IMG/VR virus record: IMGVR_UViG_3300020222_000028 | Location: 1-54,220 of that record | DNA length: 54,220 bases | Reading direction: 5' to 3' (one strand) | Source of the DNA: a virus | Lineage: Duplodnaviria > Caudoviricetes | Shown: piece by piece, positions 13,766 to 49,565 of the stretch | How positions within the stretch are numbered: position 1 is the first letter of the stretch | How the letters are laid out: each line of letters opens with the position of its first letter | The notes under the pieces: generated by a model | Seen by the model: only the letters and a program-made list of their open reading frames with translations | What the model was told of the DNA's origin: nothing | Database searches by the model: none | Program-made: the position numbers and the translations under genes

Positions 13766-14458
13766 ATGGCACTAGAAAACAAAAACTTTTCTGTTAAGAA
13801 TGGTTTATCCATTATTAACACTGAAGTAATCAGCGTAGACAGAAAAGCAAAAAATCTCACGTTTGATACTGCCGATTCTAATACATTAAAGTTAAATGGG
13901 AATCAGTTAGTAGCATCAGGTGCAGGAACATCTACTATTACTATACCAAGTGTCACTGATACATTGGTTGCTAAGAATACTGTAGATACTCTTACTAATA
14001 AAACACTTGATGATTTTGTTGTTCTAGGGACAATGACTGTTAATGGTTCTTATGGAACCGAAGGACAGATTTTGAAAGCAACAGGAAATGGAATGACGTG
14101 GGCAGATACATTCAATGGTCTACCTAGATTTGTTCCCAAAACTGCCAATTTTGTTGCAGAATCTCAAGGTCTATATTTAGTTGATTCTTCAAATAATACT
14201 ATTGAAATAACTTTACCTGATACAACAGAAATAGATTTATCGACAGGATTATATAAAGTTGAAAAAGGAGAAGGTATTGAGTTTATTGATGCTAAGGGTA
14301 TGTGGGGAATAAACTTCGTTAGATTAATATTAGGAGATAACACATCAAAATTTATTAACGCAGCAAACATTGAAGATGTCGAATATATATTCGATGTTTC
14401 TAACGTAATCGTTAGAGTTGTTTGGGATGGAGTATTTTGGAGAGTATTCTCAAAGTAA
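13766..14458 (+). CDS. Putative tail/baseplate-associated structural protein (230 aa)
   Basis: NKNFSVKNGL N-terminus, TLTNKTL motif and YLVDSS...ITLP C-terminal module; late operon. Confidence 0.7.
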   Translation: MALENKNFSVKNGLSIINTEVISVDRKAKNLTFDTADSNTLKLNGNQLVASGAGTSTITIPSVTDTLVAKNTVDTLTNKTLDDFVVLGTMTVNGSYGTEGQILKATGNGMTWADTFNGLPRFVPKTANFVAESQGLYLVDSSNNTIEITLPDTTEIDLSTGLYKVEKGEGIEFIDAKGMWGINFVRLILGDNTSKFINAANIEDVEYIFDVSNVIVRVVWDGVFWRVFSK

Positions 14459-14469
14459 GGAGAAAATAA

Positions 14470-15126
14470 ATGGCACTATATTTAAGTAGTGATTTATCTG
14501 GTTCTAGCTCTAGTTTTGGAGGTGGTAGTGGTAACATTAGTTCAGTTATTAGAACTACTACTAGTTGGTACTTTCATGCTTTAAGAAGAGATTCTGAAGG
14601 CATGTTGTATTACAACACCCTAAGACCAACTGATCCTGGAACTATTGATGTTTTCAACGAAGAAAATACACAGTTGTCGGATTTATTAGATGGCATAGAT
14701 AACGTAGATGCTAGATCTCCTATTTTGAGATTAAACTTATTGGCGGGTGGAACTAAAGTTGCTTCAGAGGCAAATGAAACATATTCAGTAAATAGTTTAG
14801 TATCTAACAATACAGGAAAAAATTTATCTTTAAATATTACTAGAGATGCTGAAGGTGTTATTAACAATATAGAAATAGTGAATGGTGGTAATGATTTTGC
14901 TTTAAAAGATCAAATCATTGTTTCGTCATCTTTGATCAAGGAAGAAAACTCCCAATCTGATTTATACTTAGAAGTAAGCGAACTAGTAAAAACATATTCA
15001 AACTCACCATCTGATAAATATCAACAGTATAGATTTGATGCGAGAAAAATTTCATATTATATTGACAATGAAGGATATTTGGTTGCTAAGTTTGGAAACC
15101 ACGATTATTCACAAGGACCACAATAA
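14470..15126 (+). CDS. Hypothetical virion-associated protein (218 aa)
   Basis: AAGGAG SD; operonic between structural genes. Confidence 0.7.
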   Translation: MALYLSSDLSGSSSSFGGGSGNISSVIRTTTSWYFHALRRDSEGMLYYNTLRPTDPGTIDVFNEENTQLSDLLDGIDNVDARSPILRLNLLAGGTKVASEANETYSVNSLVSNNTGKNLSLNITRDAEGVINNIEIVNGGNDFALKDQIIVSSSLIKEENSQSDLYLEVSELVKTYSNSPSDKYQQYRFDARKISYYIDNEGYLVAKFGNHDYSQGPQ

Positions 15127-47477: not shown

Positions 47478-47796
47478 TGAAGAATCAGAAAAAGCATATC
47501 CACCTTTCATTGTAAACAAATGTCTATCTGCTTTCCATGACACAGTTCTCTTTGCCAATGAGATGAACATGTATCCTCAGTTGGATAAGAAGATGCAATA
47601 TGACTTTTTTATAAATAGTATCAATCCGCGTAAGCGGTTTTCGCCTTGGGCGAAAAAATCTCAAGTAGAATACCTTGATGCGATTAAGGAGTATTATGGT
47701 TATAATGACGATAAAGCTCTACAAGCATTGAGAATATTATCTAAGAATCAACTTGAACACATTAAAAAACTTGTAGACAAAGGTGGGAAACGATGA
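47410..47796 (+). CDS. gp62: Clamp loader small subunit gp62
   Basis: YPPFIVNKCLS, ANEMN, QYDF...RKRFS.W, KEYYGY. Confidence 0.93.
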   Translation: MTKPTLSEYLTSINQTKKSVVIDEESEKAYPPFIVNKCLSAFHDTVLFANEMNMYPQLDKKMQYDFFINSINPRKRFSPWAKKSQVEYLDAIKEYYGYNDDKALQALRILSKNQLEHIKKLVDKGGKR

Positions 47797-48221
47797 CTCC
47801 TGATATCGAAGTAGAATGGAAGCAAGCTGATATGGTTGAGGTTACTCTCAATGAACCTGATGATTTCCTCAAAGTTCGTGAGACCCTAACTCGCATCGGT
47901 GTTGCTTCTAGAAAAGAAAAAAAGATTTATCAATCTTGTCATATCTTACATAAGCAAGGCAAGTATTATATCGTTCACTTCAAGGAGCTGTTTGCTCTTG
48001 ACGGAAAGAATACAAATCTTTCAGTGAATGATGTTCAACGTAGAAACAGAATCATTCAACTCCTCAGTGACTGGGGATTGATTGCTGTTGTAAAAGCAGA
48101 TGCTATTGCAGATGTTGCGCCGTTGAATCAAATCAAGGTTCTGGCTTTCAAAGAGAAAGACGAATGGACGCTTGAAAGTAAATACAACATTGGTCGTAAG
48201 AAGACCGAAGCAACCGAATAA
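47793..48221 (+). CDS. regA: Translational repressor RegA
   Basis: DDFLKVRETLTRIGVAS, QSCHILHKQG.YYIVHFKE. Confidence 0.97.
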   Translation: MTPDIEVEWKQADMVEVTLNEPDDFLKVRETLTRIGVASRKEKKIYQSCHILHKQGKYYIVHFKELFALDGKNTNLSVNDVQRRNRIIQLLSDWGLIAVVKADAIADVAPLNQIKVLAFKEKDEWTLESKYNIGRKKTEATE

Positions 48222-48227
48222 TTTAGT

Positions 48228-48251
48228 AGGGAGTTCCACACTCCCTTTTTT
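48228..48251 (+). terminator. Rho-independent terminator after regA
   Basis: AGGGAGT-TCCAC-ACTCCCT followed by a T-run. Confidence 0.85.
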
Positions 48252-48276
48252 ATTGCTCTTTGATATATAATACTAT

Positions 48277-48331
48277 GAGATGCCTTAGGGGTCTCTAATA
48301 AAAACTCGCTTATTCAAGGAGCAATCAAATG
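48277..48331 (+). promoter_or_regulatory. ROSE-like RNA thermometer candidate in the hsp20 5' UTR
   Basis: 5' hairpin at 48277-48295; CUC-G-CUU (48305-48311) pairs with SD AAGGAG (48316-48321) leaving a bulged G. Confidence 0.6.
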
Positions 48332-48772
48332 ACGAATACATATACATGGGATGTTTACACCCCATTCAACGTAGGATTGGAAAATGTTTTTAATCGACTT
48401 GATGCTATGTCAGGTCACAATACAAACTATCCACCCTACAACATCATCAAAAACGATAATGCTAACTACGAAATTGAAGTCGCTCTGGCTGGATTTAAAT
48501 CAGATGAGATCGAGGTCTCTACTGAACAGAACATTCTCAGAGTTGCCTCTAAAGTTGAGAAACGAGATTCTGAAAGAACATACATTCATAAAGGTCTCTC
48601 CAAGCGTTCATTCTCCCACAGCTGGCAACTCGCAGATGATGTCAGAGTATCCTCTGTAGATTTTGCAGATGGTCTATTAACAATCTCATTGGAGAAGATC
48701 ATCCCAGAACATCAGAAACGTACTACATATAATATTGGTGCTGATAAGCAACAACTTCTAACCGAAGGATAA
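48329..48772 (+). CDS. hsp20: Small heat shock protein Hsp20
   Basis: NYPPYNI, ALAGF, HKGLS.RSF, DGLL.I.L. Confidence 0.95.
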   Translation: MTNTYTWDVYTPFNVGLENVFNRLDAMSGHNTNYPPYNIIKNDNANYEIEVALAGFKSDEIEVSTEQNILRVASKVEKRDSERTYIHKGLSKRSFSHSWQLADDVRVSSVDFADGLLTISLEKIIPEHQKRTTYNIGADKQQLLTEG

Positions 48773-48780
48773 ATAAACGC

Positions 48781-48852
48781 GGGGTAACCCAAATATCGTC
48801 GGCACCAGGGGCACGGCTGGTCAGAATCAGCCCTTGCCCCCTTTTATTTTTT
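48781..48852 (+). ncRNA. Candidate structured small RNA or long terminator downstream of hsp20
   Basis: Late motif GATAAATA at 48768-48775; stem GGGGCA-C-GGCTGGT-CAGA-ATCAGCC-CT-TGCCCC followed by a U-rich tail. Confidence 0.4.
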
Positions 48853-48862
48853 GTGTTATAAT
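48834..48862 (+). promoter_or_regulatory. sigma70-type promoter TTGCCC-17-TATAAT with extended -10
   Basis: TG-n-TATAAT at 48854-48862; drives the operon leading to gp43. Confidence 0.75.
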
Positions 48863-48886
48863 ATTGAAATCTATAGGAGATTTTTT

Positions 48887-49249
48887 ATGGTCCCAAAAAT
48901 TGTTTTGACAAAGTACGGAGAAAAACTAATCACTGCAGTCGGAGAAGTAACTGATACAGAAACAGGAAAGGGATTGGGGTTTGTTTTCAAATGCCCTTAT
49001 ACTTTGAGTATGACGCCTTCAGCAGAAGGACAGTTTTCTGTAAACTTTACTAAGTGGATTCCTTATTCTATTGATAATGAGTTTAAAGTTCCTTATGATG
49101 TTGTATCTGCTGTTGGAGAACCAGAACCAGATATTCTAAATGTTTATATTGAAAAGTTTGGAGATAGATTAAATGACAACGACACCGTATCAACCACTGA
49201 TTCAAGTGATAGTGCTGAAGAATCAGGATTATCTGATAGCGCAGATTGA
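48887..49249 (+). CDS. Hypothetical protein, Sm-like fold suspected (120 aa)
   Basis: AGGAG SD before ATG 48887; KIVLTKYGEKLI...P...WIPYS...VP.D.V. Confidence 0.75.
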   Translation: MVPKIVLTKYGEKLITAVGEVTDTETGKGLGFVFKCPYTLSMTPSAEGQFSVNFTKWIPYSIDNEFKVPYDVVSAVGEPEPDILNVYIEKFGDRLNDNDTVSTTDSSDSAEESGLSDSAD

Positions 49250-49565
49250 GGAAAGAGAAGAAAGCCCAGAGTGTCTTCTAACAAATCCATATCGTATTAT
49301 AGATATGAGTTATTGGGATTACTCGAACAGAGAACAAAAACATGTTGCACCCGCAGGAGCGGTCTTTGTTGAACAATCTGAAGAAACTGAAATCAATGAA
49401 AAGACAGGAGAGGAAGTAATCACCACACAAACAGATTACATCACTCTTCAAAAGTTTCCCAGGTATACTACACAATCTCAGGTGTATCTCAGGTCAGATG
49501 ACATTCTGACCATTTGCGATCCTGGTCATCTTGTGCTAGAATGCTACCAGAAGACTGTGGGTTGA
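49173..49565 (+). CDS. Hypothetical protein, Sm-like fold suspected (130 aa)
   Basis: IVLKN...LIAQIEE...LTNPY...FP.YT...L..D.ILTI.DP. Confidence 0.75.
   Translation: MTTTPYQPLIQVIVLKNQDYLIAQIEEREESPECLLTNPYRIIDMSYWDYSNREQKHVAPAGAVFVEQSEETEINEKTGEEVITTQTDYITLQKFPRYTTQSQVYLRSDDILTICDPGHLVLECYQKTVG

Follow-up and report, generated by a model that had tools for sequence, protein, structure and literature searches.

A conserved ROSE-like leader upstream of hsp20 in cyanomyoviruses and its possible role in temperature sensing

The hsp20 gene of a T4-like cyanomyovirus is preceded by a real and strongly conserved ROSE-type leader in an unusual carrier. Our main reading, to which we assign a probability of approximately 0.6, is that the hsp20 mRNA is monocistronic and that this region forms its short, ROSE-like 5' leader of two hairpins, which came down along with an IbpA-type gene common to phages and proteobacteria. 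Direct temperature sensing by the leader is something that we infer solely from its homology to validated thermometers. The window, i.e., the whole stretch of 54,220 nucleotides that was analysed, is a 54-kb fragment of the phage with a CheckV completeness of 30%, and its regA-hsp20 stretch is approximately 66-74% identical to the closest isolates (S-PM2 and others). Locally, the genes are arranged as Dam-type methyltransferase, gp62 clamp-loader subunit, regA, hsp20, two DUF6561 genes, and DNA polymerase, and the regA-hsp20 synteny also exists in S-PM2 and other cyanophages. The features of the hsp20 locus are as follows.

47793..48221, plus strand: regA, translational repressor, the gene 5' of hsp20 (Pfam PF01818, E = 3.9e-44)
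48228..48252, plus strand: intrinsic terminator-like hairpin and T-run after regA (terminator scan; 7-pair stem 48228-48246, then TTTTTT)
48261..48271, plus strand: TGaTATATAAT, extended -10-like promoter element (read from the sequence)
48277-48328, plus strand: leader, the hsp20 5' UTR with a putative transcription start (from the sequence)
48277..48295, plus strand: hairpin 1, GAGAU-G-CC / UUAG / GG-GUCUC, with G48282 unpaired (sequence; covariation in relatives)
48305..48321, plus strand: hairpin 2, the proposed sensor, CUC-G-CUU / AUUC / AAG-GAG (sequence; invariance in relatives)
48306..48310, plus strand: U(U/C)GCU anti-Shine-Dalgarno (anti-SD) motif, here UCGCU with bulged G48308 (sequence; conservation)
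48316..48321, plus strand: Shine-Dalgarno (SD) sequence AAGGAG (sequence; present in 61/62 leaders)
48329..48772, plus strand: hsp20, IbpA-type small heat-shock protein of 147 aa (Pfam PF00011, E = 9.6e-17)
48808..48852, plus strand: terminator-like hairpin and U-run after hsp20 (RNAfold of 48773-48860; stem 48808-48840, then CUUUUAUUUUUU)

The terminator-like hairpin after regA has a fold energy of -9.8 kcal/mol and appears to separate hsp20 as a transcription unit of its own. Since a second terminator-like hairpin (48808-48840) follows the gene, hsp20 looks monocistronic; this second structure (48808-48852) was not listed by a simple terminator scan. The TGaTATATAAT box (48261-48271) was not called by a sigma-70 scan because a -35 match is absent. 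A (G)ATATATAAT block located 5-8 nt 5' of hairpin 1 is kept in most of the 63 aligned leaders, and transcription of hsp20 would probably start at around 48277-48279, near hairpin 1. In 23 metatranscriptome runs, the share of sampled words present did not exceed 0.11, and no mRNA ends were visible in contigs of relatives (90-99% identity) from four metatranscriptome runs. A 163-nt RNA-library contig of a relative (depth 3.7, 15 differences) spans 48162-48321 and thus crosses the regA terminator into the leader; it could stem from regA transcription running past the terminator or from carried-over DNA. The two DUF6561 paralogues (48887-49249 and 49173-49565) that separate hsp20 from the DNA polymerase gene are adjacent and overlapping, and the first of them is a weak match below the cut-off (E = 8.7e-4).

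The first-pass annotation, made from the sequence alone, had described UCGCU (48306-48310) pairing with AAGGAG (48316-48321) around a bulged G48308, together with a 4-nt loop and an upstream hairpin. Each of these details is borne out by the sequence. The lower part of hairpin 2 consists of the pairs C48305-G48321, U48306-A48320, and C48307-G48319, and beyond the bulged G48308 the pairs C48309-G48318, U48310-A48317, and U48311-A48316 lead to the loop AUUC (48312-48315). The upstream hairpin (48277-48295) and the 4-nt loop are both there as claimed, with hairpin 1 comprising five pairs, the unpaired G48282, and then two C-G pairs. The ATG at 48329 lies 7 nt past the SD.

The fold of the window leader alone is no better than chance. 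The minimum free energy (MFE) of the 69-nt leader is -11.7 kcal/mol (z = -1.56), and 13 of 200 shuffles folded equally well; the corresponding values for the 32-nt SD region are -2.9 kcal/mol and z = -1.06, and here 25 of 200 shuffles did equally well. At 37 C, RNAfold favours GCUU/GAGC, an alternative pairing that also covers the SD, and for the window leader the ROSE register is the MFE structure only at 10 C or below. The alternative requires C48322, the C after GGAG, which is present in just 18 of 62 relatives. For hairpin 1 of the window, RNAfold favours a register with a G.G mismatch (-7.6 versus -5.8 kcal/mol at 37 C); the bulge register is fixed by S-PM2-type relatives.

Across relatives, however, the comparison is decisive, and the structure lies far beyond chance. 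A protein-guided scan of IMG/VR yielded 181 relatives, of which the best 80 (Hsp20 76-100% identity) were examined, and the leader was present in all 80, in 54 distinct versions. It also occurs 5' of hsp20 in the cyanophages S-PM2, P-HM1, S-CREM1, Syn9, S-SSM6a, and P-SSM7, as well as in Melnitz, a phage of OM43, and PA5oct, a jumbo phage of Pseudomonas. A MAFFT-only alignment of 46 distinct phage leaders (A2), from which the covariance model R1 was built, was used along with a model-fitted alignment of 62 leaders (A5), which leans towards the structure. In hairpin 1, 96.6% of positions are paired in A2 and five of the seven pairs have compensatory changes on both sides, while all seven have them in A5. 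Hairpin 2 is paired at 99.6% (46 leaders, MAFFT) and 99.7% (62 leaders), with no compensatory changes in either alignment. None of 500 shuffles matched the observed covariation, and slid controls fell to 32-62% paired in A2 and to 30-62% overall. Covariation across phage hsp20 leaders, which the first-pass annotation had offered as a check, was therefore found for hairpin 1 and was lacking for hairpin 2 in the 62 aligned leaders. Its lack in hairpin 2 is expected, because one strand is the SD itself.

Both unpaired Gs (G48282 in hairpin 1 and G48308 in hairpin 2) are invariant in all 62 phage leaders. CUCGCUU is present in 58 of these and CUUGC in 3, and the spacer and the stretch from the SD to the ATG vary. 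The sole compensatory case within the SD helix comes from S-TIM5 (CCAC-G-CUU...AAG-GUGG), in which a U-A pair has become A-U. The pairing of hairpin 2 is thus suggested by its invariance together with the single S-TIM5 case. Of the 63 phage hsp20 leaders, R1 recovered 62 and missed S-TIM5 alone; among those recovered were 16 of the 17 that had played no part in its construction. Over the whole 54-kb window, it identified one site, the leader, with 76.9 bits. A weak match at 14433-14475 (10.6 bits, E = 2.2) was put down to chance, as both helices are mostly skipped. Furthermore, a pattern scan of IMG/VR for hairpin 2 followed by an ATG returned at least 120 stretches; among the 80 sampled, the motif was followed by an Hsp20 gene in 72, and two more end at a contig edge. 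Judged by these patterns, the leader is under strong selection in phages.

Leaders of the same kind were also found in bacteria. Each prokaryote species was represented by a single genome, and these genomes were scanned for IbpA-type peptide patterns derived from a 6-row alignment, which was used since a 19-row Hsp20 alignment has no conserved stretch. We examined the best 80 of 258 relatives. Almost all of these 80 are proteobacteria with 34-48% identity, including Pelagibacterales, Polynucleobacter, and other alpha, beta, and gamma lineages. Cyanobacteria are absent among the best 80 of the 258 loci, an absence that is partly built in because the scan patterns are IbpA-specific. The phage-only model R1 matched 49 of 79 ibpA-type loci at E ≤ 0.001, with one further locus (L091, see below) set aside. 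All 49 matches are on the strand of the gene, directly upstream of it, and end at the start codon, and several of the matched loci sit on megabase chromosomes. In the bacterial leaders, hairpin 1 covaries at six of seven pairs and both bulged Gs are invariant (48/48 for the anti-SD G). The anti-SD motif is UUGCU, with a U.G pair, in 43 of 47 distinct bacterial leaders, while phages have UCGCU, with a C-G pair, in 59 of 62; leaders of Pelagibacterales, Polynucleobacter, and other aquatic proteobacteria thus share the bulged Gs with the phages but differ in this motif. We have seen no curated entry for these aquatic proteobacterial ibpA-type leaders anywhere.

The window Hsp20 is 38% identical to E. 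coli IbpA (E = 4e-31). A tree of 121 proteins, 40 of them from phages and 81 from bacteria, shows the two groups intermingled, and its starred branches force at least four changes. As the tree is unrooted and many branches are long, the donor and the direction of transfer cannot be named. Homology of the phage leader to proteobacterial ibpA leaders is indicated by these comparisons, and the simplest reading is that gene and leader move together. On some bacterial-MAG contigs the hsp20 locus is of the phage type, and such contigs probably represent phage DNA that was binned wrongly. The leader of L091, from an Acidimicrobiaceae MAG, is for example identical to that of S-CREM1 across the aligned stretch, and L102 groups with Prochlorococcus-phage proteins in the 121-protein tree.

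Among the Rfam families, ROSE_3 (RF02523) gave a full-length match (model positions 1-69) at 48274-48334 with 21.7 bits and E = 0.076, and its alignment covers both hairpins, ACUCGCU, AGGAG, and AUGAC in register. ROSE_3 also matched 3 of 20 phage loci tested (26.6-37.1 bits) and 5 of 20 bacterial loci tested (27-33.5 bits); its gathering cut-off of 43 bits was reached neither by the window nor by any of the phage and bacterial loci tested. Within 47800-48900, a search with ROSE (RF00435) and ROSE_2 (RF01832) at E ≤ 10 came back empty. As a control, the leader of E. coli ibpA, a validated thermometer, scored 100.4 bits on ROSE_2 and 20.8 bits on ROSE_3, the latter being close to the score of the window.

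ROSE-like elements are defined by between two and four hairpins, the last of them holding the SD in imperfect pairing to U(U/C)GCU that leaves a bulged G (PMC11182007; PMC3669281). All of these structural features are found in the phage leader, namely its position in the 5' UTR of a small heat-shock gene, two hairpins, U(U/C)GCU, and the bulged G. The ROSE-like reading of the first-pass annotation accordingly stood up as a structural description, with every hallmark of a short ROSE-like element present and homologues in proteobacteria.

Among the closest known systems is the ibpA leader of Pseudomonas (Krajewski, Nagel and Narberhaus 2013, PMC3669281). Like the phage, it has two hairpins in a 5' UTR of 52-62 nt upstream of an IbpA-type gene, with the SD in the 3' hairpin, imperfect U(U/C)GCU pairing with a bulged G, a free AUG, and a hairpin I that is conserved and the more stable of the two. 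Unlike it, the phage leader is AT-rich and has no G-C pair closing the upper stem of hairpin 2, is preceded by a sigma-70-type -10 box rather than a sigma-32 promoter, and is carried by a virus of cyanobacteria. The Pseudomonas element was reported to give 4-6-fold induction from 25 to 42 C, hairpin II alone being enough, and a role of hairpin I in folding or mRNA stability was discussed (PMC3669281). The last two hairpins of E. coli ibpA follow the same plan as the phage leader, with five pairs, a bulged G, two or three pairs, and then CUCGCUGAUUUCAGGAG, and its anti-SD hairpin likewise pairs CUCGCU with AGGAG around a bulged G. It differs from the phage in having extra 5' structure, a longer UTR, and a G-C pair within its upper stem (CUGA/UCAG). 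Temperature-responsive translation is also reported for the phage mRNAs of lambda cIII and SPbeta blyA; however, these are unrelated in sequence and structure, control lysis-lysogeny or lysis genes and not a chaperone, and are not of the ROSE type.

The lack of this G-C pair is accompanied by a low predicted stability of hairpin 2. Nearest-neighbour energies in the ROSE register are, for phage and E. coli ibpA, respectively:

37 C: -1.7 and -4.1 kcal/mol
30 C: -2.55 and -5.0 kcal/mol
25 C: -3.2 and -5.7 kcal/mol
15 C: -4.4 and -7.0 kcal/mol

The median over 61 phage leaders is also -1.7 kcal/mol at 37 C. This value is weaker than every validated Pseudomonas hairpin, which span -4.1 to -7.6 kcal/mol, and -5 to -6 kcal/mol is stated as required for an effect on initiation (PMC3669281). 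Between 20 and 25 C, hairpin 2 of the phage (-3.8 to -3.2 kcal/mol) is about as stable as that of E. coli at 37-42 C (-4.1 to -3.4 kcal/mol), and linear extrapolation of the energies would place its two-state melting point approximately 17 C below that of E. coli. Such low stability would fit aquatic hosts, and the switch may be leaky. The predicted SD accessibility of hsp20 was 0.30 at 15 C and 0.36 at 37 C (rank 14 of 43 window genes). This measure is a poor test of thermosensing, because it is equally flat in the validated E. coli ibpA leader.

According to the thermometer reading, hairpin 2 would limit 30S binding at low temperature, and warming would melt its weak helix and allow more Hsp20 translation, as in ibpA of E. 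coli and Pseudomonas. Owing to its A-U-rich upper stem, hairpin 2 would operate at temperatures about 15-20 C lower than the E. coli element does, a shift in keeping with aquatic hosts. The role of hairpin 1 is most likely to help folding or to shield the 5' end, and Hsp20 itself may bind the leader and add feedback. A wider version of this proposal, which we regard as tentative and on balance doubtful, is that gene and sensor RNA form one cassette across phages of unrelated hosts (cyanobacteria, OM43, and Pseudomonas) and proteobacteria. In the infected cyanobacterium, the leader would then be a dual sensor of temperature and folding load that needs none of the host's heat-shock regulators and whose set-point is some 15-20 C lower than in enteric bacteria; heat would open the weak SD helix, and free phage Hsp20 would clamp it shut via its Arg93 surface.

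A feedback of this sort could also be the main function of the leader. It would then be mainly an operator at which free Hsp20 blocks translation until misfolded proteins titrate the chaperone away and translation resumes, so that the element senses aggregation and temperature is secondary. IbpA of E. coli, Cedecea, and Vibrio was reported to repress its own translation via a ROSE-type 5' UTR, with Arg93 being indispensable (PMC10474464). R93 of the window Hsp20 aligns with R93 of E. coli IbpA, among 19 phage Hsp20s an equivalent is found in 90% or more, with Lys in its place in PA5oct, and a hairpin 2 as weak as this one would profit from a protein clamp. Since the phage protein retains this Arg, self-repression has to be taken seriously as an alternative or an addition. 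Nevertheless, Arg at this position is common in alpha- and gamma-proteobacterial IbpAs and is therefore explicable by ancestry alone, and as the main function we consider self-repression unlikely; it is compatible with a thermometer, and the two could act jointly. Quite unlikely, in our view, is a constitutive structure that senses nothing, in which hairpin 1 keeps RNases off the 5' end and translation is held at a constant rate by hairpin 2. Hairpin 1 is indeed stable (-5.8 to -7.6 kcal/mol at 37 C) and sits at the putative 5' end, a stabilising function has been discussed for its Pseudomonas counterpart (PMC3669281), and the predicted occlusion of the SD is little altered by temperature. However, the bulged G and the anti-SD, which are invariant in 62/62 leaders, are hard to explain by a fixed rate alone, and in E. 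coli and Pseudomonas this architecture has been proven to act as a sensor.

The conserved sequence might also be a DNA site or a different operator, either a Pho box recognised by the PhoB of the host or an mRNA operator for RegA. A Pho box was predicted at -31 in the S-PM2d counterpart (ATTCAAACTCGCTTAAATA; PMC10976474), and regA lies directly 5' of hsp20. On the other hand, the same source reports that PhoB binding to the S-PM2d fragment was absent by EMSA and that the gene is not phosphate-regulated (PMC10976474), so that the Pho box upstream of S-PM2d hsp20 is refuted by published EMSA. Furthermore, the compensatory changes in hairpin 1 favour an RNA structure over a DNA site, and the element is also present at bacterial ibpA-type loci (79 were searched with R1, for the leader alone). 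We regard both versions as highly improbable. The ROSE-like leader inherited with its IbpA-type gene thus remains our preferred reading.

RNA thermometers were deemed very rare in phages as of 2024, when just one example from a phage genome, lambda cIII, was said to have preceded that of SPbeta blyA, and the leader of a sigma-70 gene in a gut phage had newly been proposed as a third (PMC11182007). The gene concerned here is widespread, as hsp20 is listed as one of 25 core genes common to all 16 cyanomyoviruses compared (PMC3037559). A literature search, with subscription journals outside its coverage, returned no publication describing a ROSE-like leader of cyanophage hsp20, and by word search or term count the leader is not discussed in the cyanophage sHSP papers PMC3827213 and PMC5028025. 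If the thermometer reading is true, a large group of ocean and lake viruses would carry its own temperature-responsive chaperone switch, which would bear on the response of infection yield to warming water. In that case, the leader would also be a ROSE variant with a naturally low working temperature, of use both in research and as a genetic part.

The comparison also corrects two annotations of relatives, the S-PM2d hsp20 'Pho box' and the P-HM1 hsp20 start. The sequence listed as a 'putative Pho box' in S-PM2d (ATTCAAACTCGCTTAAATA; PMC10976474, Table 2) is the anti-SD strand of hairpin 2, the counterpart of window positions 48300-48318. In P-HM1 (GU071101.1), the annotated GTG start of hsp20 (L083:1328) falls within hairpin 1. 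The SD-preceded ATG at L083:1379 is likely the true start, and the annotated protein is therefore probably 17 residues too long.

Several variants were found among the relatives. S-PM2-type leaders (L082:1060-1135 and 12 IMG/VR loci, namely L039, L056-L058, L060-L062, L065, L071, L072, L075, and L078) have a third hairpin, GAUGGG...CCCAU, 5' of hairpin 1. Its inner stem varies in a compensating way, the promoter box is shifted upstream, and the three-hairpin form resembles classical ROSE elements. A sigma-32-like -10 box (CCCATACGC) in these loci was rejected as a promoter, being the 3' strand of the covarying extra hairpin, and a CTTGAA-like -35 is absent at the right spacing. At L069:1079-1213, the minus strand has a sub-threshold match to Rfam L20_leader (31.6 bits against a cut-off of 58.7), where the other strand carries the hsp20 leader and the regA terminator. 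The match is apparently accidental and driven by the terminator.

In S-CREM1 (L081:1015-1738), three small minus-strand ORFs and an annotated glnA riboswitch are located between regA and hsp20. Since the S-CREM1 leader is intact beside hsp20, the leader stays with this gene and not with regA. Finally, TATAAATA, a sequence resembling a T4 late promoter, lies ahead of some leaders (L081, L087, L066, and several of L172-L251), and TATAAT lies ahead of others. Given this difference in upstream elements, the timing of hsp20 expression may differ between phage lineages.
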